A DNA stretch of 64,000 bases from Phycisphaerae bacterium (lineage in GTDB: Bacteria > Planctomycetota > Phycisphaerae > SM23-33): positions 42,097-106,096 of the forward strand of contig WRDM01000002.1 of assembly GCA_009783465.1 (NCBI GenBank), written 5' to 3'. The notes beneath the pieces are model-generated. The model did no database searches. It saw only the letters and a program-made list of their open reading frames with translations, and was not told the DNA's origin. This document shows positions 341 to 63,345 of the stretch, piece after piece. Each line of letters starts with the position of its first letter. The stretch's first letter is position 1. The position numbers and the translations under genes were made by a program.

Positions 341-2011
341 ATGACCACACACAACCTCCAACCCGCGCAGCCGCTCATCCGACGGTATCTGTTCGTCGCG
401 GCGGCCCTGTTGGCGGCGGTGTATCTGGCGTGCGTCAACGACCGCTGGTATCCCACGCCCGACAGCGCCTTGTACGCCGGGCTGGGGCGGTCGCTCGCTG
501 AAGGGCGAGGGTACGTTTTCAATGGCGGAGTGGACAACACGGCCACGCCGGGCCTGCCGGCCGTCATCGCGGCGGCGAGGCTCCTCACCGGCGGCGACGG
601 CTGGTGGGTGTGCAACCTGTTCATCACGGCCTCGGGGTTGGCGGCGTTATTATTCATCCGGGCCGTGTTGCGAAAACTGCTGCCCGCCGACGCGCCGCCA
701 TCGACGAACTCATCGCCGTCACCGCCCACATCACGGCTGCGTGACACGATCGCATCGCCCGCGCCGGCGAAGTTATCCGCCGACCTGGCCACGCTCATGT
801 TGGCCGGCTCGTTTTTGTTCTTCGAGCATTCACACTATATTTTGACGGACATTCCGCTGGTCGCGTTGGCGTGGGCTGCCTTCTATGCCGCGCTGCGGGC
901 GACGCACGGACACTGGGCCTGGCTGGCGCTGGCGGCAGGGCTGTGCGTCGCCGCCATGACGATCCGCGCGCCGATGGCGCCGTTCCTGGCCTTGCTGGCA
1001 ACGGGACTGGTGTTTGGACCGTTGCCATGCGGAACGGTCCGCGAGGGCAAGTTATCCTCGCCACACGCGGGCGAGACGCCCGCGCCACGGGCCGCGCGAC
1101 GGCGTTGGTTCGCCGCCGCCGTGCTGCTGGCGGCCACCGCGGTCCCCTTCGCGTTCTGGTACGTTCTCGGCCGGTCGATCGGACCGCTGCCGTACGTCGA
1201 ATCCGCCACACGGCTGACGGCGGGATTTTTCGCGCGGGCAGGCGAGGCCGCGTGGGCGCAGGCCGGCGTCATGTCCACATTCCTCATCGGCGTGCCCAGC
1301 ATGCCCTGGCTGGGCTTGATCCTCTGGCCGGTGGCGCTGTTGGGATTGGCCGTGCTGTGGCGGGGCTTTTGGCTGGGCCTGCTCGTGCTCGTGCCGTACA
1401 CGCTGTTCATCGCCGTCATCCGCGCTGCCGACAACCCCGATCGCTTCATGCTGCCGGTGGCGCCGCTGGTCTACCTCGGCCTGACGCAGGGCGTCTGGTC
1501 GCTCGCGACGGCGGCAGGCCACCTCGCGCGAGCACGGCGAAATCACGCGACCACCGCGTTGATCGTCCTGACGGCGGCCATCCTGCTCGCCAACGTCGTG
1601 CCGATGGCCAAGTTGGTGCATCGCATGGCCTGGCTGGCCCACACCGACCGCTACGACACCGAGGCCAAACGCGGCTTCGTGGGCGAACACAAAAAAGTCG
1701 CCGAACTCCTCGCCAACGAACTGCCCGAAGAAGGCCGATTCCTCGCCACCCGAGGCCCCGGACGAATCGTGTACTATTACAGCGGGCGACCCTTCATCAC
1801 CCCGCCGCCGCACAATGACGGCCTGCTCGGCCCCGACGATGCACAGGAACTCTGGAACCTCTGGCAGGCAAACCCCGACATCCGCATCGCCGTCCTGCCC
1901 TGGCATGGCCGACAAAAACACCACGCCTACACCGCCCGCATCGCCGAACTCTTCGCCAGCGAACGCGAACTCCACCGCGGCAACACGATGATCGTCTTCG
2001 AACGTCGCTAA
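341..2011 (+). CDS. GT39/ArnT-like membrane glycosyltransferase (PMT_2 family), carries short in-frame palindromic element
   Basis: 556 aa polytopic membrane protein; N-terminal DSALYAGLGRSLAEGRGYVF motif typical of ArnT/PMT family; peptide PHAGETPAPR at nt ~1062-1092 encoded by a copy of the in-frame palindromic element. Confidence 0.55.
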   Translation: MTTHNLQPAQPLIRRYLFVAAALLAAVYLACVNDRWYPTPDSALYAGLGRSLAEGRGYVFNGGVDNTATPGLPAVIAAARLLTGGDGWWVCNLFITASGLAALLFIRAVLRKLLPADAPPSTNSSPSPPTSRLRDTIASPAPAKLSADLATLMLAGSFLFFEHSHYILTDIPLVALAWAAFYAALRATHGHWAWLALAAGLCVAAMTIRAPMAPFLALLATGLVFGPLPCGTVREGKLSSPHAGETPAPRAARRRWFAAAVLLAATAVPFAFWYVLGRSIGPLPYVESATRLTAGFFARAGEAAWAQAGVMSTFLIGVPSMPWLGLILWPVALLGLAVLWRGFWLGLLVLVPYTLFIAVIRAADNPDRFMLPVAPLVYLGLTQGVWSLATAAGHLARARRNHATTALIVLTAAILLANVVPMAKLVHRMAWLAHTDRYDTEAKRGFVGEHKKVAELLANELPEEGRFLATRGPGRIVYYYSGRPFITPPPHNDGLLGPDDAQELWNLWQANPDIRIAVLPWHGRQKHHAYTARIAELFASERELHRGNTMIVFERR

Positions 2012-4358: not shown

Positions 4359-7300
4359 ATGCTGGGGTTGTCGCGTCGAGCGTTTCTTCAAGTCACCGCC
4401 GGCTCCGCGGGCGCCGTGGCCGCCTCCATGGGCCTGCGACAGGCGGGAAAACTCATCCCCTACGTCGTGCCCCCCGAGGAAATAAAACCAGGCCAGTGGG
4501 CGACCTTCGCGACCACCTGCCGCGAGTGCCCCGCCGGCTGCGGGCTGCACGCGCGGCACCGCGACGGCCGGGCCATCAAAGCCGAAGGCAACCCGCAAAG
4601 CCCCGTCAACCGCGGCGCGCTGTGCGCCCGCGGGCAATCCGCCGTGCAAGGCCTGTACGACCCCGACCGGCTGCGACACCCGCTGCGACGCGTCCACCGC
4701 GACGCGACGCTCGAACACGCCGCCTGGGCCGATGCCATTGCTGCCGTCATCGAAATCCTGAAAAAACCACAGAAAAACGTCCACATTGTCAGCGACTTGC
4801 AAACCGGCGCACTGGCGGAAGTGCAAACCGCCTTCGCCGCACTCCACGGCAGCGAGCCCGTGCTGTACTTCGAGCCGTGCAACTACGAACCGCTTCGCGA
4901 CGCCCACCGCATCGCCCTGGGCCTGGACGCAATCCCGCGATACCGCATCGAGCGAAGCCGCTACATTCTCAGCCTCGGCGCGGACTTCCTCGAAACGTGG
5001 ATCTCGCCCGTGGAGTTCGCTCGCGGCTTCGCAAACGCTCGCGAAATCCGCCCCGCCGAATACGGCCGCGATCCGTACGAGTCGCCGCCGCGCAGGCCCG
5101 GAAAATTGGTATACGTCGGGCCTCGACTGTCCATGACGGCCGCCAACGCGGATGAGTTTTTCCAATGCCAAAGCGGTGCCGAAGGCTGGATTGCCCTGGC
5201 GATTCTTCACGAACTGCTCGCCGCGGATTGGGTGCAAAACCAACGCGACGCGATCGCGGCAGCCGCGAAAATAGTGGGCGCCGAGCACGCGCTCAATCAC
5301 GCGGGGTTAGAAAAATCCACCGTCGCCCGCCTGGCCCACGAGTTCGCCGCCGCGCGCGGCGCGGTCGCGCTGGCGTGTCCGACCGCCGCCACGGGCGATG
5401 CGGCACGATGGGCTTCGCTGGCGGCCATCCTTCTCAACGTCGCCGTCGGCAGCGGCGGCAACGATGCGGAGAACAACGGCGTCATCGTCGATTTCTCGCA
5501 GCCGCACGCGCTGAGCGCCGCCGCCAAACTACGCGAAGTCGCCGATCGGTTGGCCTCGCTGGGGCCAAACGACGTCGTGATTCTGCACAACGCCAACGTG
5601 GCGTTCGCCCTGCCGGCAGCGGCGGCGGGATTACAAAACGCCGCCGCCGTGATTTATCTCGGCCCGCAGCTCGATGAAACCGCCGAACTCGCCGACGTCG
5701 TGCTGCCCACCGATTCGCCTCTGGAAGCCTGGGGCGACTACGAACCGTACGCGGGCATGCACAGCCTGATTCAGCCGACGACGGCCCGGCTGTACAATTC
5801 GCGAAACGCAGGCGACATCCTGCTGGCGCTCGCGCAGGCGACGAACCGCCCGCTCACTCCGCCGTACGCGTCAAGCCCGCCGGAAGATTTCCTGCACTGG
5901 CTGCGGCTGCGATGGCAACATTTTCACCCGCAACACGACTGGCAGGACGCCCTCCGCGCCGGCGGGGAGTTTGACGAGACGCCAGGTGGCGAGATGCCCG
6001 CTTCACGTGACGCGGGCGTCTCGCCCGCGTTGTGTGTTCCACTGTCCTGGCCTATGGAATACAGTAAATCTGTTCCACAGCACAGCGCGGGCAAGATGCC
6101 CGCGAGACACGAGGGCGAGACGCCCTCGTCACGTGAAGCAGACACCCGCGCCGCAGACGACCATTTCCATCTCTGGCTGTGGCCTTCGGTGTTCCTCTTC
6201 GACGGCCGGTCAGCCAACAGGCCGTGGTTGCAGGAGGCGCCCGATCCGACGACCCAGGCCACCTGGAGCAGTTGGGCGGACATGCATCCCGACCGTGCCG
6301 CCGCGCTGGGCCTGCGCGGCGGCGACGCCATTCGCATCCAACTGTACGACGCCACGGACAAATCCGCCGCCATCACCCTGCCCGTGCGAATCACCGCCGA
6401 CGTCGCCGACGACACCCTCGCCGTCGTCCTGGGCCAGGGGCACTGGGCGATGGGCAACACCGCCCGCAACCTCGGCGCCAACGCCTTCCGCCTCCGCCCG
6501 ATTCAACCGACGCGCGACAACTTCCCCGCCGTACGCGTCCGCCGTGCCGCCGGGGCCAATCCATTGTCCTATCATCCAACATCCGCCATGCAGGATCAGC
6601 ATCGCCGCGAACTGCTCCAGTGGACATCACTCGCGCAGGCGTCGGCCGACCCGCCCCCGCCGCGCGACGACGCGTTTCGCATGCCGCTGCCGGAAGGCTA
6701 CCGCACCGACGCCTACGCACCGCACGAACACCGCAACCACCGCTGGGCGATGGCGATCGACCTGCACCGATGCGTCGGCTGTGGCGCGTGCGCGGTCGCG
6801 TGCTACGCGGAGAACAACATCCCCGTCGTCGGGCCCGCCGAAGTGGATCGAGGCCGCGAAATGGCCTGGCTGAAAATCGTCCCCTACCGCTCGCCCCACG
6901 ACGCGGGCCGGCTGGGCTTCCTGCCGATGCTCTGCCAGCACTGCGACGCCGCCCCGTGCGAACCGGTCTGCCCCGTCTACGCGTCCATGCACACCGAGGA
7001 AGGCCTCAACGCCCAAGTCTACAACCGCTGCATCGGCACGCGGTACTGCAACAACAACTGTCCCTACAAGGCCCGGCGGTTCAACTGGTTCGACCGCGAC
7101 TGGCCGGAGTCGTCGCGATGGCAGCACAATCCCGAAGTCACCGTTCGCGAGCGCGGCGTGATGGAAAAATGCACCTTCTGCATTCAGCGAATCCGCCACG
7201 CCCAGCACCGCGCCCTCCGCGAAGACAGGCCGCTGCGAGACGGCGAAATCCAGCCCGCGTGCGTCGCCACCTGCCCGACCTCGGCCATGATCTTCGGCGA

Positions 7301-7427: not shown

Positions 7428-9382
7428 CCTACGCACAAATCGACGATGCCGTTCTCGGCGCGATGGCGCCGGCGAGGCGGCGGTATGTCGTCATCATGCT
7501 CGTGCTGGGCGGGCTTGTGGCGATGTTTTTCACCCTATGGATTCACCAGGCCCGCACGGGCATGGGCGTGGCCGGGATCAACTCGCCGGTCGGCTGGGGC
7601 GTGTACATCGCGTCGTTTGTGTTCTGGGTGGGCATCGCGCACAGCGGGACGTTGATTTCCGCCATCCTGCACCTGGTCCGCGCGAAATGGCGCACCGCGG
7701 TGGCCAGGTCCGCCGAGGCCATGACGATTTTCGCCGTCATGACCGCGGGGCTGTTCCCGCTGATCCACCTCGGTCGGGTGGGCGTGTTTTATTACATTCT
7801 GCCGTACCCGACCACGCGGCAGATTTACCCGAATTTCCTCAGCCCGCTGGTGTGGGACGTCGTGGCCATCTCGACCTACTTCACGGTCAGCCTGGTCTTC
7901 TGGTATGTCGGCCTGCTGCCGGATCTGGCCAGCGCCCGCGACCGCTGGCACCGCCTGGTCGGCCCCCATCACCCGCGCACGCGATTCTATCACGCCCTGG
8001 CCATGGGATGGTCCGGCAGCGGCAACCAGTGGCGGCATCACGGGCGGGCATACCTGTTCTTCGCCGCCCTGGCCACGCCATTGGTCATCAGCGTGCATTC
8101 GGTCGTCTCGTGGGATTTCGCGATGTCCATCCTGCCGGGATGGCACACGACGATGTTTCCGCCGTACTTCGTCGCCGGGGCCATTCACTCGGGACTGGCC
8201 ATGGTTATCGTGCTCCTGCTGCCGATGCGGAAACTTCTGCGGCTGGAAAGCCTCGTCACCGACTGGCACTTCGACTGCCTGGCCAAGACCCTCCTCGTCA
8301 CCACGTGCATCATGGGCTATTCGTATATCATCGAGCCGTTCACCGCCTGGTACAGCGGCAACGTGATCGAGCGGCAATTCATCCACTGGCGGGCGTTCGG
8401 CGACACCTGGCTGACGCCGGGCTACTGGTCGATGTGGCTGCTGAACGTCATCGTTCCGCTGGCGTTTTTCGTGCCCCGCCTCCGCCGCAGTCCCACCGCG
8501 CTGATGCTCATTTCCCTTGGCATCACGATCGGCATGTGGCTGGAGCGCGGCGTGATCGTGCCGGCAAGCCTCGCCCACGACTTCATGCCCCACGCCTGGG
8601 GCCAATACGTCCCCAGGCCAATCGAATGGGGAATTCTCCTGGGCTCGTTCGGCTGGTTTTTCTTCTGGTTTTTCGGCTTCGCGAAATTTTTACCGACCAT
8701 CGCGGCGAACGAGGTGAAAGAAGAAACGCATCGCGATGGCTTGCCGGCACCACGTGACGCGGGCGTCTCGCCCGCGTTGTGCGCTCCATGTGACTGGCTA
8801 CTGGAAAACGCCAAGTCGTCTTCAACATCGGACGCGGGCAAGATGCCCGCGAGACACGAGGACGAGACCCCCGCGTCACGTTACGTCTGGGGAACATTCG
8901 ACACGCCCGCCGCGTTGATCGCCGCCGTGCGGCAACTGCGTGACGACGGCGTGACGGGCATGGAGACGTACACGCCGTTTCGGTTACAGGAGGTGGAAAA
9001 ACTGCTCGGACGCGGCCCCAGCCCGGTGCGGCTGTGGACGTTGGCGGGCGCGTTGGCGGGCGCGGCGGGCGGATTCGCGTTGGCGATCGGCCTGGCGGCG
9101 ATTAACGGGCTTGTCGTCGGCGGGCGGATTTCCTACGCCGTCATCGTGCCGTACTGCGTGATCGCTTTCGAAGGCACGATCCTGCTGGGCGTGCTGGCGA
9201 ACGTGACGGGATTGTTTTTTCATGGCCGCCTCGGCAGCGCGAGGCCGTTGCCGCGCGGATACGTCCGGCGGATTTCGGAAGACCGTTTCGGCCTGCTCAT
9301 CCCGTGTGATCGCGAGCAGGTCGGCGCGATGCGGGAGCGGCTGAGCACCCTGTGCGCGGAGGCGATCCATGTCGTCGAATGA
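7415..9382 (+). CDS. actC: Alternative complex III ActC (NrfD-like polytopic subunit) fused in-frame to ActD via a palindromic element linker
   Basis: Starts MERLTYAQIDDAVLGAMAPARRRYVV (ATG overlapping actB stop); ~10 TM NrfD/PsrC-like body; after element (8749-8883) reading frame continues into YVWGTFDTPAALIAAVRQLRDDGV... (ActD/DUF3341-like) with C-terminal TM; no stop or restart between. Confidence 0.7.
   Translation: MERLTYAQIDDAVLGAMAPARRRYVVIMLVLGGLVAMFFTLWIHQARTGMGVAGINSPVGWGVYIASFVFWVGIAHSGTLISAILHLVRAKWRTAVARSAEAMTIFAVMTAGLFPLIHLGRVGVFYYILPYPTTRQIYPNFLSPLVWDVVAISTYFTVSLVFWYVGLLPDLASARDRWHRLVGPHHPRTRFYHALAMGWSGSGNQWRHHGRAYLFFAALATPLVISVHSVVSWDFAMSILPGWHTTMFPPYFVAGAIHSGLAMVIVLLLPMRKLLRLESLVTDWHFDCLAKTLLVTTCIMGYSYIIEPFTAWYSGNVIERQFIHWRAFGDTWLTPGYWSMWLLNVIVPLAFFVPRLRRSPTALMLISLGITIGMWLERGVIVPASLAHDFMPHAWGQYVPRPIEWGILLGSFGWFFFWFFGFAKFLPTIAANEVKEETHRDGLPAPRDAGVSPALCAPCDWLLENAKSSSTSDAGKMPARHEDETPASRYVWGTFDTPAALIAAVRQLRDDGVTGMETYTPFRLQEVEKLLGRGPSPVRLWTLAGALAGAAGGFALAIGLAAINGLVVGGRISYAVIVPYCVIAFEGTILLGVLANVTGLFFHGRLGSARPLPRGYVRRISEDRFGLLIPCDREQVGAMRERLSTLCAEAIHVVE
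8749..8883 (+). repeat. in-frame palindromic element (IPE family) at actC/actD junction
   Basis: CCACGTGACGCGGGCGTCTCGCCCGCGTTGTG...GACGCGGGCAAGATGCCCGCGAGACACGAGGACGAGACCCCCGCGTCACGTT; encodes PRDAGVSPALCAPCDWLLENAKSSSTSDAGKMPARHEDETPASR. Confidence 0.85.
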
Positions 9383-11017: not shown

Positions 11018-11023
11018 GGAAGA

Positions 11024-14630: not shown

Positions 14631-15038
14631 ATGGCCAAAACCTTCGAAGAGTATCGCGTGCTTTCTCAACCGGCGGCGTGGGCGTTGCTGTTTCTGCTGG
14701 CCGGTGGCATTCTCGCGTGGGGCCTGTTCGTGAAATCCGTCATTCCCAACACACCGCGCGTCCACAACTACGGCGCCCTGCCCGACGCACCGGGACAATC
14801 CATCTACTCCACAAACCCCACGCCGCGCGACACCACCGCACCGCCGCAATATCAAACGCTCCCCGAAGCCAAACGTGACGCGGGCGTCTCGCCCGCGTTG
14901 TGCGTTCCATTGGCCGAGGCACCGGAAAACGATCTCTCGACTTCGCCATCCGGCACGGGCAAGATGCCCGCGGGACACGAGGGCGGGACGCCCTCGTCAC
15001 GTGAGACGCCCACATCACACGCAGAGGCGTCGCCATGA
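14631..15038 (+). CDS. small membrane protein whose C-terminal third is encoded by an in-frame palindromic element
   Basis: N-terminal TM (AWALLFLLAGGILAWGLFV); C-terminal ...AKRDAGVSPALCVPLAEAPENDLSTSPSGTGKMPAGHEGGTPSSRETPTSHAEASP*; stop overlaps next start (ATGA). Confidence 0.35.
   Translation: MAKTFEEYRVLSQPAAWALLFLLAGGILAWGLFVKSVIPNTPRVHNYGALPDAPGQSIYSTNPTPRDTTAPPQYQTLPEAKRDAGVSPALCVPLAEAPENDLSTSPSGTGKMPAGHEGGTPSSRETPTSHAEASP
14874..15004 (+). repeat. in-frame palindromic element (IPE family) forming the C-terminus of a small membrane protein
   Basis: AAACGTGACGCGGGCGTCTCGCCCGCGTTGTG...CACGGGCAAGATGCCCGCGGGACACGAGGGCGGGACGCCCTCGTCACGTGA. Confidence 0.85.
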
Positions 15039-18982: not shown

Positions 18983-19000
18983 AGTAGACTACACTTTCGC

Positions 19001-19090
19001 GATGGCTCCGCCGGTTTGCGCTGTAGAACGTTGTGGACTACAAAACATTTTTTTGTACGCAACGTTCTACAACGCAAACCGGCGGAGCCA
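19001..19090. repeat. palindrome (short BPAL variant: gcgatggctccgccggtttgcgctgtagaacg...cgttctacaacgcaaaccggcggagccat)
   Basis: Between murG and ftsW; related copies at 33165-33230 and 58334-58423. Confidence 0.8.
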
Positions 19091-19104
19091 TATCAACCAT
19101 TCGT

Positions 19105-20569: not shown

Positions 20570-21727
20570 TCAGTCCACCAGCGCCGTCGGCTGGAACTCC
20601 AGCCGCATGGCCGCCAGGGCGAGCACGGCCAGCAGGATGCCGATGATCCAGAATCGCGTGACGACCTTGGTTTCCGCCCAGCCGCCCAGGTGAAAATGAT
20701 GATGCAGCGGCGCGCAGCGAAAAACCCGCTTGCCCGCGATGCCGCCTTTTTTCTTGGTGAGCTTGAACACGCTCACCTGGATGATGACGCTGAAGGCCTC
20801 GGCCACGAAGATGCCGCCCGCGATGAACAGCACGATCTCCTGCCGACAGACGACCGCGACGAACCCCAGCAGCCCGCCGAGCGTCAGGCTGCCCGTGTCG
20901 CCCATGAACACCTGCGCGGGATGCGCGTTATACCAGAGAAATCCCAAACACGCGCCAATCATGGCCGCACAGACAATCGCCATCTCCTGCGCGCCGTACA
21001 CCAGCGGCACGCCCAGGGCCATCGACCACTCCCGCACGCCCGCCACCCACGCCACCACGACGAAGACCGCCGACACGATAATCACGCACCCGGTGGCCAA
21101 ACCGTCCATGCCGTCGGTGAGGTTCACCGCATTCGACGTGGCCACCATCGTCAGCGTCGAAATCATCACATAGTAATAAATCGTCAGCACGATCGGCGAG
21201 GCCAGGAACGGCAGGTAAAAATGATGCGAAGGCCTCAACTGCCCCACACCCGCCTGCCCGCCGTAATGATACATGTATACCGACAACACCACGCCAAGCC
21301 CGATCTGGAAGAGCAGCTTCTCGCCGCTGGTCAGGCCGTCGCGATTGCCCTTGCCCGCAGCGCGGCGAAGCTTGAGCCAATCGTCAAAGCCCCCCAGCAC
21401 GCCCAGCCAGACGGCCGCGAGAATCGCCGCCCACACGTACAAGTTCCGCAAATCGGCGAAAAACAGCACCGCCAACACAATGGCCACCACGATCAGCACG
21501 CCCCCCATCGTCGGCGTGTTGGATTTGTGCTTGGTGATCTCGTTCAGGTCGATGTGATTAAACTCAGGCCGGTCGCCGACCTTCTTCTTGATGAGAAACC
21601 GAATCAGGCTCGGGCCGAGCATCATGACCACCGCAAAACTCATGAACGCCGCCGCGCCCATCCGCACCGTCAACAACGAGCCGGGCTTGATGTCCAACGA
21701 CAAAAAATTGAGAAGCCAGTAGATCAT
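20570..21727 (-). CDS. mraY: phospho-N-acetylmuramoyl-pentapeptide transferase
   Basis: 385 aa, 10 TM, MraY family (DGMDGLA, NLTDGLDGL-like motifs). Confidence 0.9.
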   Translation of the reverse strand: MIYWLLNFLSLDIKPGSLLTVRMGAAAFMSFAVVMMLGPSLIRFLIKKKVGDRPEFNHIDLNEITKHKSNTPTMGGVLIVVAIVLAVLFFADLRNLYVWAAILAAVWLGVLGGFDDWLKLRRAAGKGNRDGLTSGEKLLFQIGLGVVLSVYMYHYGGQAGVGQLRPSHHFYLPFLASPIVLTIYYYVMISTLTMVATSNAVNLTDGMDGLATGCVIIVSAVFVVVAWVAGVREWSMALGVPLVYGAQEMAIVCAAMIGACLGFLWYNAHPAQVFMGDTGSLTLGGLLGFVAVVCRQEIVLFIAGGIFVAEAFSVIIQVSVFKLTKKKGGIAGKRVFRCAPLHHHFHLGGWAETKVVTRFWIIGILLAVLALAAMRLEFQPTALVD

Positions 21728-21731
21728 TCTC

Positions 21732-21840
21732 GTTAACCCGGTAACTGGTTAACTAGTTGACTAGTTAACTGGTTGACTGGTCCCTTCGCCAAACGGTTCC
21801 TCTTCACTAGTTAACCAGTTAACGAATTAACCAGTTAACA
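21732..21840. repeat. GTTAAC-rich palindromic repeat (ggttaactagttgactagttaactggttgac...ctagttaaccagttaacgaattaaccagttaac)
   Basis: Family copies at 192-240, 25311-25400, 42461-42522. Confidence 0.75.
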
Positions 21841-21909
21841 AAAATGCTTCCCTCGAACAACCGGTTCACCTTCACCCACACGCTTCGCAAATCCTACGTG
21901 GCTGCGTGG

Positions 21910-23454
21910 CTACGTAGCCGCCGCTCCAAAACGTACGATCGGTCCAACCAGGCGCTCCATCGCCATGCCTCGCGAGCCTTTGATCAGGATCGTGTCGCCC
22001 GCTCGCAGCAGCGCGGGCAAGGCCTCGATGGCGGACTCGACGGAATCGAACTCCGCCGTCCGCGCCGTCGCGCCCGCCGACGCGGCGCCTCGCGCGATAT
22101 ATCGTCCCAACAGGCCGATTCCAATGAGAAAATCCACCCGCCCAGACGCGATCTCCCTGCCCGTCCGTTCGTGCAGCGAAATCGTCGACTCGCCAAGCTC
22201 TCGCATGTCGCCGGCGATCATCACGCGACGCGCGCCCGGCTGGTCGCCCAGCACGTCCGCGGCCGCGGCCATGCTGGCGGGGTTGGCGTTGTACGCGTCG
22301 TTAATCAGCCGCACGCTGCCGGCGGGCACGGCCTCCAGCCGCATCTCCACGCCACCGAAATCCGCCAACGCCGCCGCCGCGTCCTCCGCGCTCACGCCCA
22401 GACACGCCGCGGCCGCCATCGCCGCCGTCGCGTTGCTCGCACTGTGACGTCCCGGCTGCGGCAACACCACGCGCACGTCCCGCCCGCCAACGCGAACGGA
22501 AAACCGCACGCAGTCCGCGCCACCCTCGAAATCCACCAGCCGCCAATGGGCATCCGCCGACTGGCCAAACCATGTCACCGCCGCTCCACCCGTCGCCGCA
22601 ACCGCTTCGCGACGCAACGACTCGTTGTCCGCCCACACCACCGCCTGGCCCGCTCCGCGCAGCCCTGCGTAGCTCAACGAGCGAAGCAGGGACGCCTTCT
22701 CCTTCGCCACCAATTCCAGGCTGCCAAGTTTTTCCAGGTGCGTCTCGCCCACCGACGTAATCACGGCCACGTCGGGCCGGCAGATCTCGCCCAATTGCGT
22801 GATCTCGCCCGGCGCGTTCGTACCGACCTCGCACACGACGTACTGATCGCACTCGCCAACGCCCAACAGCGTCAGCGGCACGCCGATGTTGTTATTAAAA
22901 CTCTTCGGACTGCACGTTCCGTGTAAACGTGACGCGGGCGTCCCGCCCGCGACACGACTCAGAATGTGATGCAACATCCGCTTGGTGGTCGTCTTTCCGT
23001 TGGACCCCGTGACGGCGATCACGCGGGCGGGCATCGCGTCGCGGTGCCACCGTCCCAGCCTGCCCAACGCCGCCAGCGTGTCCGACACGCCAATCAACCG
23101 ATCGCCAAACCGCCGCGCCAAATCAGCCGGCAGCGGCACGCGAACATCCACCAGCGCCCCGCCCGCGCCGGCGGCGAACGCCTGCGGAAGAAAATCGTGC
23201 GCGTCGAATGTCTCGCCCTTGATCGCGATAAACAACGGCCCGTCCGGCCCAATCTTCCGACTGTCCATTTCGACGGCCTCGACACTCACCGCCGCCAGCG
23301 AACGTACGGCAGCGCTGGCGACATTCACATCCGCGCCGGCGCAGTCCGCGCCAGGCCACCAGAACGATTGGCCGTCCACGATTTTTCGAATGTCTTCCAG
23401 CGACGTCCGCTTCATAACAACACACCTGGCAATACATTCTGCTATCACATCCAA
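21910..23454 (-). CDS. murF: UDP-N-acetylmuramoyl-tripeptide--D-alanyl-D-alanine ligase, carrying a partial in-frame palindromic element
   Basis: Mur ligase domains (GSNGKTTTK P-loop, NNNIGVPLTLL); peptide SRVAGGTPASRLHG encoded by element fragment at 22927-22956. Confidence 0.8.
   Translation of the reverse strand: MDVIAECIARCVVMKRTSLEDIRKIVDGQSFWWPGADCAGADVNVASAAVRSLAAVSVEAVEMDSRKIGPDGPLFIAIKGETFDAHDFLPQAFAAGAGGALVDVRVPLPADLARRFGDRLIGVSDTLAALGRLGRWHRDAMPARVIAVTGSNGKTTTKRMLHHILSRVAGGTPASRLHGTCSPKSFNNNIGVPLTLLGVGECDQYVVCEVGTNAPGEITQLGEICRPDVAVITSVGETHLEKLGSLELVAKEKASLLRSLSYAGLRGAGQAVVWADNESLRREAVAATGGAAVTWFGQSADAHWRLVDFEGGADCVRFSVRVGGRDVRVVLPQPGRHSASNATAAMAAAACLGVSAEDAAAALADFGGVEMRLEAVPAGSVRLINDAYNANPASMAAAADVLGDQPGARRVMIAGDMRELGESTISLHERTGREIASGRVDFLIGIGLLGRYIARGAASAGATARTAEFDSVESAIEALPALLRAGDTILIKGSRGMAMERLVGPIVRFGAAAT
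22927..22956 (-). repeat. in-frame palindromic element fragment (single hairpin unit) inside murF
   Basis: acgtgacgcgggcgtcccgcccgcgacacg. Confidence 0.7.
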
Positions 23455-23465: not shown

Positions 23466-23704
23466 CCGCTTGATTCTTTTAGCCCCGGCAGGGGCGCCTT
23501 GGGTAGCCCAGGGTGAGCCGTACTCGGCGAACCCTGGGGACAAGGCGTTTCATTCCGTCCAAGCCCCGTAGGGGCGCCTTGGATTCTCGCAACCTCCAAG
23601 GCGCCCCTGCCGGGGCTTTTTCTTCTTGGGCCGCTATCCCAGGGTTCGCGGAGTACCGCTCACCCTGGGCTACCCAAGGCGCCCCTTCCGGGGCTTGATA
23701 CCGG
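23466..23704. repeat. complex inverted repeat in murF-murE spacer (arms gccccggcaggggcgccttgggtagcccagggtgagccgtactcggcgaaccctgg / ccagggttcgcggagtaccgctcaccctgggctacccaaggcgccccttccggggc with inner hairpin)
   Basis: ~55-nt arms at 23466-23530 and 23640-23704; partial copy at 3518-3556. Confidence 0.75.
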
Positions 23705-23759: not shown

Positions 23760-25304
23760 TCATCGTTTCACCAACATCTCGCGCACCACTTCGGCATCAT
23801 CAAAATGATGTTTGGTTTCCTCGACAATCTGGTACGTTTCGTGCCCTTTGCCGGCTAACAAAATCACGTCGCCTTCGCGGGCGTGCTGAATCACCCGCTC
23901 GATCGCCTTGCGGCGGTCGGGTTCGACGTGCGTTTTGGCCAGGCCTGCCGGTGTGAAGCCGGCGAGGATTTCGTCGATGATCGCGCGGGGGTCTTCCGTT
24001 CGCGGGTTGTCGCTGGTGACGACGACGGCGTCAGCAAGTTCTTCTGCCACGCGGGCCATCCGAGGCCGTTTGAGTCGGTCGCGATCGCCGCCACAGCCGA
24101 ACATCACGATCAGCCGCCCCCGCGTCACGGGCCTGACCGCCGACAGCACGTTCGCCATCGCGTCGTCCGTATGAGCGTAATCCACGTACACCGTGAACGG
24201 CGCGTCCACCGGCACGCGGTCAAGCCGCCCCGGCACGCGAACGCCCTTCGTCAACGTCGAGGCGATCACGTCCCACGACACGCCCAACCCGCGACAAATA
24301 CCCGCCGCCGCGAGACCGTTCCGCACGTTGTGCTTGCCGATCAGCGGGCTGGCAATCATGATCTCACGTGACGCGGGCGTCTCGCCTGCGTTGTGCGTGC
24401 CATGGGATTGGCCATTAGAAGACGTCAAACCGTCTTCGCCCGACGCGGGCAAGATACCCGCGTCACGCATCACAAACTCCGTGCCGCGGTCGCTGATGTC
24501 GCGAATCACAGCGCCGAGCGTTCTCGGCCCGTCCAGGCCGTAACTCACCACACGGCCTCGCGTCACCGCCGCCATCGCCTCGCCCGACGGATCGTCAAAA
24601 TTAATCACCGCCGTCGCGGAGGCGGGCAACTCCGCAAAGAGAATCCGCTTGGCCGCGAGATAATTCGCCATCGTCTTGTGATAGTCCAAATGCTCGCCGG
24701 TCAAATTCGTGAACGCCGCCGCCGCGTACTCCACGCCGGCCACCCTGCCCTGATCCAGCGCGTGCGACGACACCTCCATCACCAGGTGCGTTCGACCGGC
24801 CTGTACCATCTCGGCCATCATCTCCGCCAAGTCCACCGCGCCGGGCGTGGTGTTGTTGGCCTCGACGCTGGTTTTTCCGGTTTCGTAGGCAATCGTGCCC
24901 AGCAGCGCCGGCCGATGGCCCGCCGCCTCCAGGATCGCCCGCACCAGCAGCGTGATGGTGCTTTTTCCCTTCGTGCCCGTCACGCCGATGTTGATCAACT
25001 TCCGCGCCGGCCAGCCGTGAAACGCCTGCGCCATCGGCCCGAGCGCCCGCGCGGAACTCGACACCACAGCCCACGGCACGGACGCGGGCACGGCAGCGGC
25101 ATCCTCGCACACCACCGACGTCGCCCCGCCCGCCAACGCCGCCGCGATAAAATCATGCCCATCCACCACAGGCCCGCGCACGGCCACGAAACACGCCCCC
25201 GCGGCGCAGCGTCGCGAGTCGCTCACCAGCGAGGCCACAGGCCCGTCGCCGCGGCGAACGACCACGTCCACCCCCGCCGATGCCAACAATTCCGACAGAC
25301 GCAT
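23760..25304 (-). CDS. murE: UDP-N-acetylmuramoyl-L-alanyl-D-glutamate--2,6-diaminopimelate ligase, carrying in-frame palindromic element
   Basis: Mur ligase domains (GVTGTKGKSTIT P-loop, DNPRTEDP); internal ...SSNGQSHGTHNAGETPASREIMIA... encoded by element at 24364-24469. Confidence 0.85.
   Translation of the reverse strand: MRLSELLASAGVDVVVRRGDGPVASLVSDSRRCAAGACFVAVRGPVVDGHDFIAAALAGGATSVVCEDAAAVPASVPWAVVSSSARALGPMAQAFHGWPARKLINIGVTGTKGKSTITLLVRAILEAAGHRPALLGTIAYETGKTSVEANNTTPGAVDLAEMMAEMVQAGRTHLVMEVSSHALDQGRVAGVEYAAAAFTNLTGEHLDYHKTMANYLAAKRILFAELPASATAVINFDDPSGEAMAAVTRGRVVSYGLDGPRTLGAVIRDISDRGTEFVMRDAGILPASGEDGLTSSNGQSHGTHNAGETPASREIMIASPLIGKHNVRNGLAAAGICRGLGVSWDVIASTLTKGVRVPGRLDRVPVDAPFTVYVDYAHTDDAMANVLSAVRPVTRGRLIVMFGCGGDRDRLKRPRMARVAEELADAVVVTSDNPRTEDPRAIIDEILAGFTPAGLAKTHVEPDRRKAIERVIQHAREGDVILLAGKGHETYQIVEETKHHFDDAEVVREMLVKR
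24364..24469 (+). repeat. in-frame palindromic element (IPE family) inside murE (opposite orientation to host gene)
   Basis: TCACGTGACGCGGGCGTCTCGCCTGCGTTGTG...GACGCGGGCAAGATACCCGCGTCACG. Confidence 0.85.
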
Positions 25305-25310
25305 GTTTTC

Positions 25311-25400
25311 GTTAACTGGTGAACTCGTTAACTCGTTAACTGGTTAACTCGTTGGCGCACGTCGCAACTTCACGAGTCAACCAGTTAACGAATCAACGAA
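25311..25400. repeat. GTTAAC-rich palindromic repeat
   Basis: gttaactggtgaactcgttaactcgttaactggttaactcgttgg...cgagtcaaccagttaacgaatcaacg. Confidence 0.75.
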
Positions 25401-25523: not shown

Positions 25524-25716
25524 CAAGCCACTAGCCATCAGCCACTAGCCACCAGGGTTTTCGTGACTCGGCTGTAAAATCGCTCCTCCTGTTCGAGAGA
25601 GTGATCTCGTGGCTTCGCTGACTCGTAGATCAATTCTCACACGCACACCAGCAGTATGCCCTGGCTTCTGGAAAGCTTCGCCCTACCTTGTGGCTTGTGG
25701 CTAGTGGCTTGTGGCT
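25524..25716. repeat. divergent OPH-type element (gccactagccatcagccactagccacc...ccttgtggcttgtggctagtggcttgtggctg)
   Basis: Shares arm motifs with OPH family but core not conserved. Confidence 0.55.
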
Positions 25717-27751: not shown

Positions 27752-27896
27752 AAGCCAGTAGCCAATAGCCAGTAGCCACAAGGTATGGTAAAGCCTGTTA
27801 CGAATCATCCGATCTTGAACTTCGCCACGTTCGTGTCTATTCCCGCTTTCACTGCCATTTCGCCACCGACGTTCCTTACCTTGTGGCTAGTGGCTG
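27752..27896 (-). repeat. operon-hairpin element (OPH family), reverse orientation, between ftsI and ftsL-like gene
   Basis: Reverse complement aligns with forward copies (..ggtaaggaacgtcggtggcgaaatggcagtgaaagcgggaataga...ctttaccataccttgtggctactggc). Confidence 0.85.
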
Positions 27897-28277: not shown

Positions 28278-28292
28278 AACCGCTCCGACAAC

Positions 28293-28436
28293 AGCCAGTA
28301 GCCATCAGCCAATAGCCAGTAGGTATGGCCACGCCTGATGTCGATCACACGATCCAGATCTTGGCTACCTGTACACCCGTTCCCGCTGCCGCTGCCATTT
28401 CGCCGACGTCGTGCCGTACCTATTGGCTACTGGCTA
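28293..28436 (-). repeat. operon-hairpin element (OPH family), reverse orientation
   Basis: acagccagtagccatcagccaatagccagtaggtatggccacgcctgatgtcgatcacacgatcc...gttcccgctgccgctgccatttcgccgacgtcgtgccgtacctattggctactggctac. Confidence 0.85.
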
Positions 28437-28445
28437 CATCAACCG

Positions 28446-34868: not shown

Positions 34869-36113
34869 TCAGTCCTGGCCCATCATCTCGAGATAGAGTT
34901 TTTCGTGGGCGGCGACCATGGTATCGACGGCGAAGGTTTCGGCGCGGCGGCGGGCGACGGTGGCCATGTGACGGCGGAGTGGCGTGTCGTGGGCGAGGCG
35001 TATCATGGCCTCGGCGAGGGCGGCAGGGTTTTCGGGCGGGATGAGCAGGCCGGTTTGGCCGGGGAGCATGACGTCGCGGAGTCCCTCGACGTCGGTGGCG
35101 ATCACGGGCAGCGAGGCGGCCATCGCTTCGACCGCCGACAGGCCAAACCCTTCCCAGCGGCTTGGCATGACCAGGAAATCGCCCGCAGAGTACAGGCCCG
35201 CGATCTCGTCAACAAACCCCGGAAACACCACCCGTACCGCCCCGTCGGCAGGCTGATTCCGCACAAATTCCTCGACCATCCCCTGCCAAGGCCCCTGCCC
35301 GGCGATGGCAACGACAAGCCGGGCCCGTGACGCGGGCGTCTCGCCCGCGTTGTGTGATCCATAGGCCTGGCCGTTAGAGGACGAACAAGCGTCTTCGCCT
35401 CCAGACGCGGACGAGACATCCGCGAGACACGCGGGCAAGATGCCCGCGTCACGTGGCCCCAACCGCTGGGCCGCCAGCGGCAACGCCTGGAGCAGAATGT
35501 CCAGCCCCTTCTGATCACATAACCGGCCGGCCCAGACGGCCAACCGATCCGCCTCGCCGACGCCAAGCCGCTCCCGCCACGCCAAGCCTCGCGACGCGTT
35601 CCGTGCATACGCGGCCAGGTCGATGCCGTTTTCGATCGTCACGCACCGCCGGGGCGAAATCCCCGACCGCCGAATGTGGTCCGCCCGCACGCTCTCCGAC
35701 ACGCACACGACAGGCCCGCGACGCTGGAACAGCCGACCGTACAGACTCCGCCACGGCAGAAACCGCCGCTCGGCTACGTGAACGGTGTGGGCCACGCGCG
35801 GCACGCCCGCCAGCCTCGCCGCCAGCCGCCCGGCCAGGTCGGCGTGGAACAAATGCGTGTGCACCATATCAAACCGCCCCGCCGCCAGCCATCGCGACAG
35901 CTCGCGAACCTTCAGCACGTCCCACTTGCCCGCCACGCCGAGCACGAACACCTCCACGCCGGCATCGCGAAGCCGCTCAGCGACGGCCCCGCCACGCAAC
36001 GCCGCCACACTCACACCAAACCGCGACCGGTCCAGCCGCGTCGCCAACTCATACACCACCCGCTCGGCGCCGGCGGGGGCAAGCTCGGTGATCATTTCAC
36101 ACACGCGAATCAT
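34869..36113 (-). CDS. GT4-family glycosyltransferase carrying in-frame palindromic element
   Basis: GT-B fold group-1 glycosyltransferase motifs (EGFGLSAVEAMAASLPVIATDVEG); internal ...ASGGEDACSSSNGQAYGSHNAGETPASRARLVV... encoded by element 35325-35456. Confidence 0.7.
   Translation of the reverse strand: MIRVCEMITELAPAGAERVVYELATRLDRSRFGVSVAALRGGAVAERLRDAGVEVFVLGVAGKWDVLKVRELSRWLAAGRFDMVHTHLFHADLAGRLAARLAGVPRVAHTVHVAERRFLPWRSLYGRLFQRRGPVVCVSESVRADHIRRSGISPRRCVTIENGIDLAAYARNASRGLAWRERLGVGEADRLAVWAGRLCDQKGLDILLQALPLAAQRLGPRDAGILPACLADVSSASGGEDACSSSNGQAYGSHNAGETPASRARLVVAIAGQGPWQGMVEEFVRNQPADGAVRVVFPGFVDEIAGLYSAGDFLVMPSRWEGFGLSAVEAMAASLPVIATDVEGLRDVMLPGQTGLLIPPENPAALAEAMIRLAHDTPLRRHMATVARRRAETFAVDTMVAAHEKLYLEMMGQD
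35325..35456 (+). repeat. in-frame palindromic element (IPE family) inside GT4 glycosyltransferase gene
   Basis: CCGTGACGCGGGCGTCTCGCCCGCGTTGTG...GACGCGGACGAGACATCCGCGAGACACGCGGGCAAGATGCCCGCGTCACGTG. Confidence 0.85.
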
Positions 36114-45168: not shown

Positions 45169-46846
45169 CGATAGTGCGTTCATGGCCGCCGCGTTGGCGT
45201 GTGCGGCCTTGGGTCGCGGGCACGTCGAACCGAACCCGATGGTCGGCGCGGTGTTGGTACGCGACGGGCGGGAGATCTCCCGCGGGTTTCATCGGCGATT
45301 CGGCGGGCATCACGCGGAGGTGGAGGCCGTGCTCGCCGCCCGCGCCGCCGGGACCGACCTGCGCGGCGCGACGCTCTATGTCACGCTCGAGCCGTGCTGC
45401 CACACCAACAAAAAAACACCCCCCTGCGCGCCGATGCTCGCGGGGCTGGGCCTGCGACGCGTCGTCGTCGCGATGGAGGATCCCGACCCCAACGTGCGAG
45501 GCCGCGGATTGGCCATGCTTCGCGACGCGGGCGTGGCGATAACAACCGGCGTGTGCGAAGCGGCCGCGAAAACTCTGTTGCGTGCGTACGTCAAACTGCG
45601 AACGCAGGGCAGGCCGTGGGTGATCTGTAAATGGGCGCAGACCGCCGACGGCTATCTCGCGCTGCCGCCGTCGGCGGGGCGATGGATCAGCGGCGAGGCG
45701 TCGCGGCGGGACGTCCACCGCCTGCGGGGCCTGTGCGACGCGATCCTCGTCGGCGTGGGCACGGTGCTCGCCGACGACCCCCTGCTCAACAACCGCTCCG
45801 GCGAAGGCAAACAGCCAACCCGCATCGTGCTGGACACCCATCTCCGCACGCCGCCAACCAGCCGACTCGTCCAGACCGCCCGCGAGTTCCCGCTGATGAT
45901 CGTCACACAAGCACACAACGCGGGCGAGACGCCCGCGCCACGTAGCACGGGCGTCCCGCCCGTGAGTCGCATGGGCGTCTCGCCCATGCAACCGCAGCCG
46001 ATCAGCGAAACGTTCCTGATGCAAGCCGACGCGCTCCGCAACGCCGGCGTGGAACTCCTCGAACTGTCCACCGACGACAGCTTCGGTGGCAAAATCCACC
46101 TCCCCGCCCTGCTGGACGAACTGGGCCGGCGACGCATGACGTACCTGCTCGTCGAAGGCGGACACCGCGTGCTGCAACGTTTCCTCCACGCCGGCCTGGC
46201 GGACGAAATGCGAACGTACACCTCGCCACGAACCCTCCGCGACGAGTTCCTGTCCGAAGCCCTCGCCACGCTGCCGCACATGGACACACGGGAATTTCCG
46301 TCGCCAGGCATGGACTTGGAAGTCAGCCAGCCGCTCGGCGAGGATACGCTGCGCGGCTACGCGCGGGCAGCCGCGACCGTCCGTTCAGGCGAGGACAAGC
46401 GAAAACATGGCGAAGATGACGGCGGCGTTACTCGTCTGACAGGCAACGAATTAGGCGATGGCCTGGTGTTCGACCGGCTTTTGGAGGAAGCACGGAAGTA
46501 CGCCAGAACGAATTTTTTCGACAAAAAAGTGGCCATCGAGTCCGAAGGCGTTGAGGTTCTGGTTGCGATGAGTGGGATCAAACACACGCTGACAGCCGCT
46601 AAAACGAATGAGGATATCTATGCGGTTATCGCATTGCCTCAACTTCTACAGCGTGCCGTCAAGACAGGAGAATCGCCCGACAAACGCAACCGGAATAACG
46701 TCGTTGCCGTTGAGCGATATCGGGCTCCGCTCCGCATTGGCGACAATACGTACATGGCCGAGATGATTGTGAGAGTGGAGAAAAAAAGCACGAGAATGCT
46801 GGGCCATCTTCGCGTGTTCCACCACCAAGAACTGAAGGGCCTGTAG
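45140..46846 (+). CDS. ribD: riboflavin biosynthesis deaminase/reductase RibD with in-frame palindromic element and a ~150-aa low-GC C-terminal extension
   Basis: CMP/dCMP deaminase zinc motif (HAEVEA...PCCH...C) and RibD_C reductase domain; QAHNAGETPAPRSTGVPPVSRMGVSPMQPQP insert (45914-45988); residues after ~420 (nt ~46400-46846) have markedly lower GC and no RibD homology. Confidence 0.75.
   Translation: MTDVQATGDSDSAFMAAALACAALGRGHVEPNPMVGAVLVRDGREISRGFHRRFGGHHAEVEAVLAARAAGTDLRGATLYVTLEPCCHTNKKTPPCAPMLAGLGLRRVVVAMEDPDPNVRGRGLAMLRDAGVAITTGVCEAAAKTLLRAYVKLRTQGRPWVICKWAQTADGYLALPPSAGRWISGEASRRDVHRLRGLCDAILVGVGTVLADDPLLNNRSGEGKQPTRIVLDTHLRTPPTSRLVQTAREFPLMIVTQAHNAGETPAPRSTGVPPVSRMGVSPMQPQPISETFLMQADALRNAGVELLELSTDDSFGGKIHLPALLDELGRRRMTYLLVEGGHRVLQRFLHAGLADEMRTYTSPRTLRDEFLSEALATLPHMDTREFPSPGMDLEVSQPLGEDTLRGYARAAATVRSGEDKRKHGEDDGGVTRLTGNELGDGLVFDRLLEEARKYARTNFFDKKVAIESEGVEVLVAMSGIKHTLTAAKTNEDIYAVIALPQLLQRAVKTGESPDKRNRNNVVAVERYRAPLRIGDNTYMAEMIVRVEKKSTRMLGHLRVFHHQELKGL
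45914..45988 (-). repeat. in-frame palindromic element (IPE family, three hairpin units) inside ribD
   Basis: cacaacgcgggcgagacgcccgcgccacgtagcacgggcgtcccgcccgtgagtcgcatgggcgtctcgcccatgc; left end is exact reverse complement of the IPE terminal repeat. Confidence 0.8.
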
Positions 46847-62256: not shown

Positions 62257-63345
62257 ATGCATGATGTCGTGATTGAACGCGTGCCTTTGTCGCGTCGGCG
62301 GGCAGCGATGAGGTTTCTCATCGGCGGTTCGTCGCGCGACACGTTTACGCGGATGCAGGCGGATTCGTTGTATCAGCGCACGCTGGGCGCCGACGCGGGC
62401 CTGGCGGAATTGTGGTGGGCGCGGCGAGGGCGGACGGAGCTGGCGGCGGCGATGATCTATCACAACGTCGGACGGACAGGCACGCTGTTGGCCAGTCCGG
62501 CGGCAGCGCCGGACGTCGACGCCCAACAACTCGCCCGCCTCGTCGGCGAACTGTCGCGGGCCGAAATCCGCCGCGGGTTGTCGATGATCCAGACACTCCT
62601 GCCGGCCGAGGCGAAACCCGAATTGGCCATGCTCGGCCAGGCGGGTTATCACCGCTTGGCCGAACTGGCGTACATGCAGCTGGCCGTGCCGCTGGCGTGT
62701 AACACGGGCATCTTGCCCATGAGTCGCATGGGCGTCCCGCCCATGCAAACGCCGCCAGCAGATCAGGCCTTCACATCACAGATAAATACAAACGAAGCGA
62801 TTATGCCATATGCCGAGCATGGGCGAGACGCCCATGCGGCTCACGGGCAAGATGCCCGTGCTACGTTTCACGTCGCAGCCGAGTTTCCCGCGCGGGAGCT
62901 GGAACAGATCATCCGCCGCAGTTACGAGGACTCGCGGGATTGTCCGGGACTGGCGGGCGTGCGCGATCTCGGCGACGTCGTCGCGGGGCATCGCGCCAGC
63001 GGGCTGTTCTCGCCCGAAAGCTGGTGGATCGTCCACGTCGAGGGCCAATCGGCAGGCTGCCTGCTGCTGAACGAATCCCTCACCGGGCAGGACGGCGAAA
63101 TCGTCTACCTCGGCGTGGCGCCGGAATTTCGCCGCCAGGGCATCGCACGGACCATGCTCGTCCAGGCGATTTCGCACGCACAGCGCGTCTCCTGGCGGCG
63201 GTTGACGCTGGCCGCCGACTCGTCAAACCTGCCTGCCGTCAGGCTTTACGAATCGTTCCAGTTCGCCGTCTCGCACCGTCGCGACGCCTGGATTTTCACG
63301 CGGCGCGACGTGGCTGAGGGTTTCCCCTCAAAAAACCGCTGTTAA
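62257..63345 (+). CDS. GNAT-family N-acetyltransferase with in-frame palindromic element in N-terminal half
   Basis: C-terminal GNAT core (VYLGVAPEFRRQGIARTML, acetyl-CoA Q/RxxGxA motif); insert CNTGILPMSRMGVPPMQTPPADQAFTSQINTNEAIMPYAEHGRDAHAAHGQDARATFHVA at 62705-62872. Confidence 0.55.
   Translation: MHDVVIERVPLSRRRAAMRFLIGGSSRDTFTRMQADSLYQRTLGADAGLAELWWARRGRTELAAAMIYHNVGRTGTLLASPAAAPDVDAQQLARLVGELSRAEIRRGLSMIQTLLPAEAKPELAMLGQAGYHRLAELAYMQLAVPLACNTGILPMSRMGVPPMQTPPADQAFTSQINTNEAIMPYAEHGRDAHAAHGQDARATFHVAAEFPARELEQIIRRSYEDSRDCPGLAGVRDLGDVVAGHRASGLFSPESWWIVHVEGQSAGCLLLNESLTGQDGEIVYLGVAPEFRRQGIARTMLVQAISHAQRVSWRRLTLAADSSNLPAVRLYESFQFAVSHRRDAWIFTRRDVAEGFPSKNRC
62705..62872 (+). repeat. in-frame palindromic element (IPE family, catgggcg/cacgggca hairpin-unit variant with AT-rich centre) inside GNAT gene
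   Basis: gggcatcttgcccatgagtcgcatgggcgtcccgcccatgc...(AT-rich 45 nt)...gagcatgggcgagacgcccatgcggctcacgggcaagatgcccgtgctacgtttcacg. Confidence 0.8.

Follow-up and report, generated by a model that had tools for sequence, protein, structure and literature searches.

What a near-perfect palindrome is doing inside the coding sequence of murF, and how it came to be so short, is the question raised by this locus. We addressed it in the whole 64-kb stretch of DNA, called here the window; all coordinates are positions in the window and all strands are given relative to it. An earlier note had described the 30-nt unit acgtgacgcgggcgtcccgcccgcgacacg (Table 1) as a palindromic hairpin in murF, a half-copy of an element that decays in place. 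The hairpin is indeed present, it is read in frame and it belongs to a family. On the minus strand it is translated within the murF ORF as ...HHILSRVAGGTPASRLHGTCSPKSFNNNIGVPLTLL, and the codons across it are AGT CGT GTC GCG GGC GGG ACG CCC GCG TCA CGT TTA (S R V A G G T P A S R L). The product of the host gene matched solved MurF structures in the PDB with a best E of 5e-64, and it was 100% identical to P0001, a 501-aa MurF from a Phycisphaerae MAG on a 117.6-kb contig. The neighbouring genes, murE upstream and mraY downstream, lie on the same strand.

Table 1. Features of the 64-kb window with their positions and strands.
Feature	Position	Strand	Details
Two-hairpin family cluster	1041..1089	+	in frame in a 561-codon ORF
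Full ~130-nt copy	6005..6134	+	in frame in the gene of an ActB-like molybdopterin/Fe-S oxidoreductase
Full ~130-nt copy	8752..8881	+	at the ActC (NrfD)/ActD junction, one open frame
Full ~130-nt copy	14873..15002	not assigned	
mraY	20570..21727	-	downstream of murF
murF (UDP-MurNAc-tripeptide--D-Ala-D-Ala ligase), host gene	21910..23415	-	ORF 21910-23454, 514 codons
Solo REP-like hairpin in murF	22927..22956	-	near-perfect 30-nt palindrome; CGT GTC GCG GGC GGG ACG CCC GCG TCA CGT = RVAGGTPASR
Net insertion relative to MurF orthologues	22930..22953	-	24 nt (8 codons), VAGGTPAS; MAFFT alignment
murE	23760..25304	-	upstream of murF
REPIN-like copy in murE	24365..24467	-	two inverted hairpins and spacer; 29 aa added (RDAGILPAS...NAGETPASR)
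Full ~130-nt copy	35325..35454	-	in frame between two domains of a GT4 glycosyltransferase
Three-hairpin cluster	45912..45990	+	in frame inside RibD; includes the GTAG-tagged REP GTAGCACGGGCGTCCCGCCCGTG, 45942-45964
REP cluster	62699..62866	+	CATGGGCG/CACGGGCA variants, in frame in a GNAT-domain protein

In the murF unit, a perfect G+C stem of 8 bp, extended outward by 4 bp, closes a loop of 3 nt. Its folding energy as RNA is -24.3 kcal/mol (z = -3.7 compared with shuffled sequences). A terminator-like hairpin with a T-run was not found at the unit, and the sole match in an Rfam search of the window was one tRNA, which leaves the hairpin element without an Rfam family. The unit is not a chance palindrome, since its 19-nt core has 22 matches in the window at up to three mismatches where 0.6 are expected. 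With a stem-loop regular expression we detected 20 family hairpins in 9 clusters over the 64 kb, compared with 0.38 in shuffled sequences.

What the unit corresponds to becomes clear from the long members of the family. The window contains about eight further occurrences of a repeat of 100-170 nt, whose terminal hairpin is matched by the murF unit. The unit shares 26/27 nt with the ends of the long copies (family D17), namely the ~130-nt repeats and the 103-nt murE copy. A long copy contains 3-4 hairpins. Its outer hairpins are inverted and tagged outward, ACGTGA-CGCGGGCG...CGCCCGCG-TCACGT, around a spacer of ~55 nt that holds a small hairpin of its own, and further hairpins are stacked beside the outer ones. 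We observed this inverted-pair form in the murE, GT4 and ActB copies as well as in the copies of the relative L043 described below, and over its whole length the murE copy forms a single long hairpin (-67.1 kcal/mol, z = -6.8). The term half-copy needs correction, since one hairpin module of 3-4 amounts to about a quarter-copy. Every copy is bounded by ACGT-like ends. Since these ends (ACGT...ACGT) are palindromic, a target-site duplication is not separable from the terminal inverted repeats.

The family resides mostly in genes. Long ORFs contain at least 8 of the 9 clusters, six of which are flanked by Pfam domains, and typical peptides encoded by the copies are RDAG(V/I)(S/L)PA... and ...NAGETPASR. 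In-frame read-through was found in an ActB-like gene, at the ActC/ActD junction, in MurF, MurE, GT4, RibD and GNAT genes and in one unannotated ORF; in MurF, MurE, ActB, GT4 and RibD the domains are intact on either side of the insert. Adjacent hairpins are spaced by 24 nt in 15/16 pairs and by 27 nt in the remaining pair. Both distances are divisible by three, so gain or loss of a unit keeps the reading frame. Further single-unit scars, for which the earlier note had suggested a search, were not found in the 64-kb window beyond murF, but the single-unit form does occur in murE of a relative (L042).

The added peptide was sized by alignment of MurF with its orthologues, as had been suggested. 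In a MAFFT alignment set of 119 Phycisphaerae/Planctomycetota orthologues, the distance from TGSNGK to PLTLL is 41 residues in 118/119 and 49 in the query, and the eight extra residues, VAGGTPAS, fall between the conserved SR and RL of MurF. The peptide was not found in those 118 orthologues, nor in the MurF structures of E. coli, A. baumannii and P. aeruginosa; its occurrence in MurF of unrelated bacteria was the observation named beforehand as speaking against an insertion.

The palindrome is six nucleotides longer than this net gain, and the codons at its borders suggest why. Arg is encoded by CGT on both sides of the insert, a codon used for only 8% of the Arg residues in the window genes, and the closest uninserted lineage has AAG TAC at these two positions (outgroup DNA: CTG GGC AAG TAC CTG CAC). 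Because CGT is rare and the outgroup reads AAG TAC there, all 30 nt are most likely derived from the element, with two ancestral codons replaced and ten element residues, RVAGGTPASR, contributed to the protein. The 14-residue peptide that had been quoted as the product of the element would then be trimmed to these ten, eight of them being the net addition, while its S and LHG are native MurF.

An AlphaFold2 model of MurF (mean pLDDT 92.6; 74 for the block 151-160) places VAGGTPAS in a surface loop which leads from the P-loop helix 141-154 to the strand 166-168. The loop extension of eight residues is probably tolerated by MurF without having a function of its own, and the remnant would be neutral. 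Among distant proteins the length of the same loop varies, being four residues greater in P. aeruginosa than in E. coli.

We compared the same site in relatives; within the clade, murF sequence came from only three members, the query among them. One of them is represented by two assemblies, L043 (JGI 3300010167) and L044 (ENA), which differ by 1 nt in 3.5 kb. For the MurF of its dcw cluster, identity to the query amounts to 76% (amino acids) and 79.5% (nucleotides). At the very codon where the query has its hairpin, L043 murF carries a 168-nt full element with identical left and right junctions, ILSR-GAGVSPACVEGVPPSRPAGILPASGEDGLTSHGDQAGGTHNAGGTPAPRETPAPR-LRGTCSPKSF, and its DNA reads AGC CGT GGC GCG GGC ... 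AAC GCG GGC GGG ACG CCC GCG CCA CGA GAG ACG CCC GCG CCA CGT TTG. The query unit is equal to the left junction of this copy (AGY CGT GNC GCG GGC) together with its last full hairpin (GGG ACG CCC GCG YCA CGN). The GGGAC loop is the same in both, and 28/30 nt are identical between the query unit and the matching L043 pieces. In the query the right junction CGT TTR follows directly on the counterpart of the last hairpin; in L043 an additional partial repeat of 18 nt intervenes. L043 murF has a second copy 600 nt further downstream, and since the two share ~96% identity, the copy at this site could be young.

The third clade member, L045, is essentially uninserted. Its murF site reads TGT AAG GCG GGC CTG, which adds one amino acid and keeps the outgroup-like AAG codon, and its MurE is 78-81% identical. 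Outside the clade, the loci L126/L127 of the P0124/P0002 organism have an uninserted murF and zero family hairpins in 7.4 kb. Nothing above 52% identity was found when metagenomes were scanned with MurF, and a protein search with the L043 MurF, in a database that lacks this protein itself, gave no new relatives.

A parallel series of sizes was observed at one beta-turn site in murE. There is no insert at this site in 107 of 120 database matches, the query's own MurE (P0121) being one of the 120. L045 has six additional amino acids without a hairpin, L042 has eight, the query has 29 and L043 has 50. The L042 insert is a single 30-nt palindrome with two tags, CGT GGC GCG GGC ATC TTG CCC GCG TCA CGT. 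In a neighbour-joining tree of MurE, the query, L043 and L045 form one clade (bootstrap 100%), to which the uninserted P0124/P0002 lineage is sister. Within the clade the query tends to be basal (L043 with L045, support 76%). L042, whose MurE is partial, groups with these three, at a place within the clade that the tree does not fix. The same murE loop is occupied by other element families in P0125/P0127 and in P0128/P0129. Since these families are unrelated, recurrent independent insertion at permissive loops is real. On parsimony, the sequences would place an element at both the murE and the murF sites in the clade ancestor; reduction would later have left a single unit in murE of L042 and in murF of the query, and L045 would have lost the element almost entirely.

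Our preferred reading, to which we assign a probability of about 0.65, is that the hairpin in murF represents a REP singlet, left over when a REPIN-like composite repeat collapsed in place at an orthologous insertion. The ancestral repeat would have been composed of inverted GTGA-tagged G+C hairpins with a ~55-nt spacer and extra hairpins in 24-nt steps, and it would have entered the permissive surface loop of MurF in frame, in the ancestor of this Phycisphaerae clade. Each hairpin arm (GCGGGC...GCCCGC) recurs in direct orientation as the matching arm of the other hairpins. Because the arms are direct repeats, slippage or recombination between the first and the last hairpin could delete the interior. 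The product would be one stem-loop in which both outer tags and both original junctions are kept.

Two-sided tags were observed both in the murF unit (GTGA...aCAC; inner side 4/5) and in the unit of L042 murE (GTGG...TCAC; 5/5). In a Tepidisphaeraceae MAG the same 24-mer occurs as free singletons, which have a tag on one side only and are followed by T-runs. The spacer is conserved among long copies across loci and genomes, and since slippage of a single hairpin cannot regenerate such a spacer, we infer that the change ran from long to short. The remaining stem is still perfect, which argues for a clean deletion between hairpin arms as the likely way of shrinkage. The proposal that the insertion decays in place is supported by the full copy at the same codon in L043, by the uninserted sister lineage and by the murE series, and needs correction as to gradual erosion. 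Deletion between the two REPs of a REPIN, which yields a long palindrome with a single REP, was proposed by Bertels & Rainey 2011 (PMC3116915), where REP singlets are regarded as immobile remnants. A single ancestral insertion also requires a near-precise loss in L045, because L045 keeps the outgroup-like AAG and has one additional amino acid only.

The same hairpin could have arisen by an independent insertion at a hot spot after the split from L043, either of a REPIN that then collapsed or of a single hairpin directly. Identical junctions would then reflect target specificity together with selection for permissive in-frame sites. The unrelated families at the murE beta-turn site are in line with such a hot spot, as is L045, which lies inside the clade and has retained AAG in a murF lacking the insert. 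The similarity of the two L043 murF copies (96%) suggests recent activity, and the ACGT-like ends of all copies are compatible with a preferred target. Against this, the junctions of the query and L043 agree to the codon, and two ancestral codons were turned into rare CGT in both lineages. Moreover, the two-sided tags fit a collapsed inverted pair, while free singletons have one tag, and singlets are held to be immobile in the REPIN literature (PMC3116915). We consider a separate insertion possible but doubtful. Growth in the opposite direction, with an ancestral single hairpin and a long L043 copy produced by later REP/REPIN insertion beside or into it, is unlikely. REPs are known insertion targets and REP clusters do enlarge (PMC3733652, PMC3116915), and the tail of the L043 element has 18-nt and 24-nt tandem additions. 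However, one spacer and one architecture are common to the long copies across loci and genomes, so that the L043 copy is a standard element and not an accretion, and growth would have required the exact re-creation of both outer junctions.

A hairpin retained for its function, as an mRNA structure that tunes murF translation or stability or as a useful MurF loop, would account for the 8-bp stem being still perfect and for the stability of the RNA hairpin. It is very unlikely, given that the sequence is absent from 118/119 orthologues and is scattered among many unrelated genes, with neither a terminator-like T-run nor an Rfam match. The zero changes in the 16 stem bases are not significant at the observed divergence, as a rough estimate puts their chance at ~0.19. 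The variation of the loop among distant MurF proteins might suggest a native variable loop, or the unit might be a G+C-rich palindrome that arose by chance. Both ideas are refuted by the number of core matches (22 against 0.6), by the 26/27 identity to the element ends and by a loop length that is invariant in 118 orthologues, and we give them hardly any weight.

Collapse in place, if correct, gives an unusually clean, codon-resolved view of before and after: an essential gene takes up a selfish repeat, which persists as a tolerated surface loop and then collapses to a scar of eight residues. A bolder and less likely reading is that the family is a REP lineage specialised for life inside genes, which would have coding sequence as its main habitat and be a recurring source of loop-length variation in proteins. 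Its arrays could grow and shrink in frame in surface loops, even those of essential enzymes (MurE, MurF, ActB, RibD), because of the strict 24-nt (8-codon) period and the small flexible residues A/G/T/P/S/R. In practical terms, odd loop insertions rich in G/A/P/T that occur in planctomycete proteins, such as AGETPASR or RDAGVSPA, stem from repeats, and alignment, tree building and structural work should be done with them masked out.

The hairpins are REP-like. Every copy of the murF family has a GTGA tag (ACGTGA-CGCGGGCG), and sister hairpins in the window, at 45942-45964 and in reverse complement at 62842-62864, have the canonical GTAG head. Di Nocera et al. 2013 (PMC3733652) accept GTGG, GTRG and similar heads; GTGA is not listed there. 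In L129, a Planctomycetota MAG locus with a MurE 52% identical, a RAYT (NF047646, 88.7 bits at a cutoff of 80; Pfam Y1_Tnp) is bordered on both sides by near-identical GTAG-tagged hairpins (GTAG-CACGGGC...). The 23-mer family to which the REP of the RibD cluster belongs also flanks this RAYT. The elements may owe their origin to a RAYT. With the L129 RAYT as a tblastn query, none was found in the fetched relative loci or in the window, whose 64 kb are only part of the genome. In a pattern scan of genome contigs from a collection without the source MAG, multi-copy families were found only in Planctomycetaceae co3_550, Tepidisphaeraceae SMAG_U4988 and Chloroflexaceae H28_384. Many matches occurred singly, among others in Actinomycetota and Acidobacteriota, and resemble hairpins that are unrelated or due to chance.

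The likeness to REP/REPIN-RAYT systems (PMC3116915, PMC3733652) extends over several properties. Both are built on a short G+C palindrome, in which the GTGA of the murF family would correspond to the conserved tetranucleotide head, and the 30-nt unit is within the range of 20-40 nt and forms a stable stem-loop that is multi-copy and dispersed. The replicative form is an inverted pair with a spacer, tagged outward and folding into one long hairpin. Singlets, doublets and clusters occur, the singlets being read as dead remnants. The differences are the tag, GTGA here and canonically GTAG, the stacking of extra hairpins at a 24-nt period, and the location, as almost all window copies are intragenic and translated in frame whereas REPs are typically extragenic.

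Intragenic REPs are documented exceptions (PMC3733652). In-frame examples are described there in Opitutus terrae, Thauera, Xanthomonas and others, with GTAG or CGTC heads, single, dimeric or grouped, and encoding ~10-80 aa. O. terrae, which belongs to the same PVC superphylum, has GTGG-type tag variants, and in two Xanthomonas species different REPs are inserted at about the same recB site (PMC3733652). Unlike those cases, the family described here struck the essential cell-wall ligases MurE and MurF, and it provides a series at orthologous sites across relatives, from full and partial copies to a single unit and a footprint. The phenomenon as such is already known, both as REP/REPIN singlet remnants and as RPE-like in-frame repeats. 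What is new is its occurrence in Phycisphaerae and in essential Mur ligases, which extends intragenic REPs and RPEs to free-living members of the Planctomycetota.

Small palindromic or inverted repeats of other bacteria are more distant comparisons. The mosaic arrays of palindromic units in the BIMEs of E. coli look similar, but BIMEs are extragenic. Bacterial MITEs (Nezha, Correia/NEMIS, ERIC) are likewise small non-autonomous repeats with inverted ends, and differ in usually having target-site duplications and IS-like terminal inverted repeats. In gene position, the Rickettsia palindromic elements (RPE; refs 13 and 14 of PMC3733652) are alike: they are palindromic and sit in frame in numerous functional genes that are unrelated to each other, adding short peptides to the products. 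RPEs belong to another phylum and are A+T-rich, whereas our family is G+C-rich, and Rickettsia has a reduced intracellular genome, whereas the host here is of a free-living planctomycete-type lineage. We therefore treat the murF family as an analogue of the RPEs, likened to them by its in-frame position in genes, and not as a member.

In the window, a full element of the REPIN-like family lies exactly between two domains of alternative complex III. The NrfD/ActC domain, the element and the ActD domain form a single unbroken frame (6137-9382), and the element may therefore bridge or fuse two genes that are normally separate.

The mur genes hold further insertions. In the murF of L043, a related metagenomic contig, we found a second full element (L043:12685-12900) located 3' of VRVGRG, at a site which aligns to ~22440-22500 of the window. 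At this site the murF of another relative, L045, reads GGGVGR (~+5 aa) and the query MurF reads GGRD; both are possible further element scars. The element tails in L043 carry 18-nt tandem partial repeats, two to three copies of GAGACGCCCGCGCCACGA (L043:12240-12260, 12860-12900 and 10975-11000), which give ETPAPR repeats on translation and represent sub-unit slippage within the coding sequence. In the protein alignment, the MurF orthologue P0068 shows an independent 8-aa insertion, RNALTGPG, in the MurF loop that holds the hairpin scar of the query, several residues before that scar. Different, unrelated repeat-like peptides sit in the MurE beta-turn that holds the query's element in two pairs of orthologues from other lineages, which points to a recurrent hot spot tolerant of insertion.

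In L129 (GCA_964498305.1), a contig of a more distant Planctomycetota MAG, a RAYT transposase gene (L129:1640-2430) is positioned directly 3' of murE and is flanked by GTAG-tagged REP hairpins. The gene call joins murE, REP and RAYT into one MurE-REP-RAYT fusion ORF of 772 aa, and the next gene begins at 2426.

The hairpin was also observed in other MAGs. The Tepidisphaeraceae MAG SMAG_U4988 contains the identical 24-mer CGTGACGCGGGCGTCYCGCCCGCG as single hairpins (loci L012, L020, L036 and L041), immediately followed by T-runs and placed in spacers richer in A+T; these single hairpins look terminator-like. The Chloroflexaceae MAG H28_384, from the phylum Chloroflexota, has the same hairpin core (loci L006, L016, L021, L026, L033 and L034) within a different conserved repeat, TGCCCGCGGAGA-CGTGACGCGGGCGGGACGCCCGCG-CTCCCAGG.

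Repeat-associated features, in window coordinates
Feature	Position	Strand	Family	Context
Full REPIN-like element	8752-8881			exactly between NrfD/ActC domain (end ~8573) and ActD domain (start ~8885)
Repeat-like peptides, P0125/P0127: …VPSAEPCRATTVHPRHASEDGSMAPT…; P0128/P0129: …QSVPVPF…GTDTDFGKSESVPF…	aligned to ~24365-24467			MurE beta-turn
8-nt periodic motif arrays (GTTAACNN / GTTGACTA...)	21723-21843, 25302-25397, 42444-42502, 182-224		D1, D5	intergenic
Second family, GCCANTAGCCA-type	4049-4205, 11017-11172, 12564-12720, 13746-13889, 25526-25556, 27753-27895, 28289-28437, 55976-56137		D8, D9, D15, D18, I3-I7	intergenic
Third family, GGCCACAGGCCCTGCCAGTTTGCGTTG... palindromes	14133-14260, 36203-36330, 62036-62163, 18995-19094, 58327-58426, 34621-34836		D3, D12, I1, I2, I12, I18, I20, I23	apparently intergenic
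58-nt inverted repeat, 95% complementary	23481-23538 / 23638-23695		I15, I17	murE-murF intergenic region
55-nt inverted repeat, perfect at 100% complementarity, arms 12 nt apart	41485-41606		I14	CACAGAG motifs
126-nt tandem repeats and GAA/GAG-rich acidic tract	16800-17685 and 16374-16630		D4, D7, D13, D14
Conserved 71-nt 3' end	31687-31757, 33361-33431, 36493-36563, 38056-38126, 41620-41690	minus	D11

Among the other repeats of the window, the 8-nt periodic arrays flank murF, murE and other genes. The second family combines short periodic motifs with conserved blocks of ~100-150 nt in both orientations. The third consists of near-perfect palindromes ~100-160 nt long and is MITE-like. An arm related to the 58-nt inverted repeat was found 20 kb off, at 3506-3575.

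Repeats are also present in other protein genes. On the minus strand, the 126-nt tandem repeats, which the acidic tract adjoins, encode a TPR-like repeat protein. The 71-nt end is common to five genes, and its product is a PEP-CTERM-like sorting tail.
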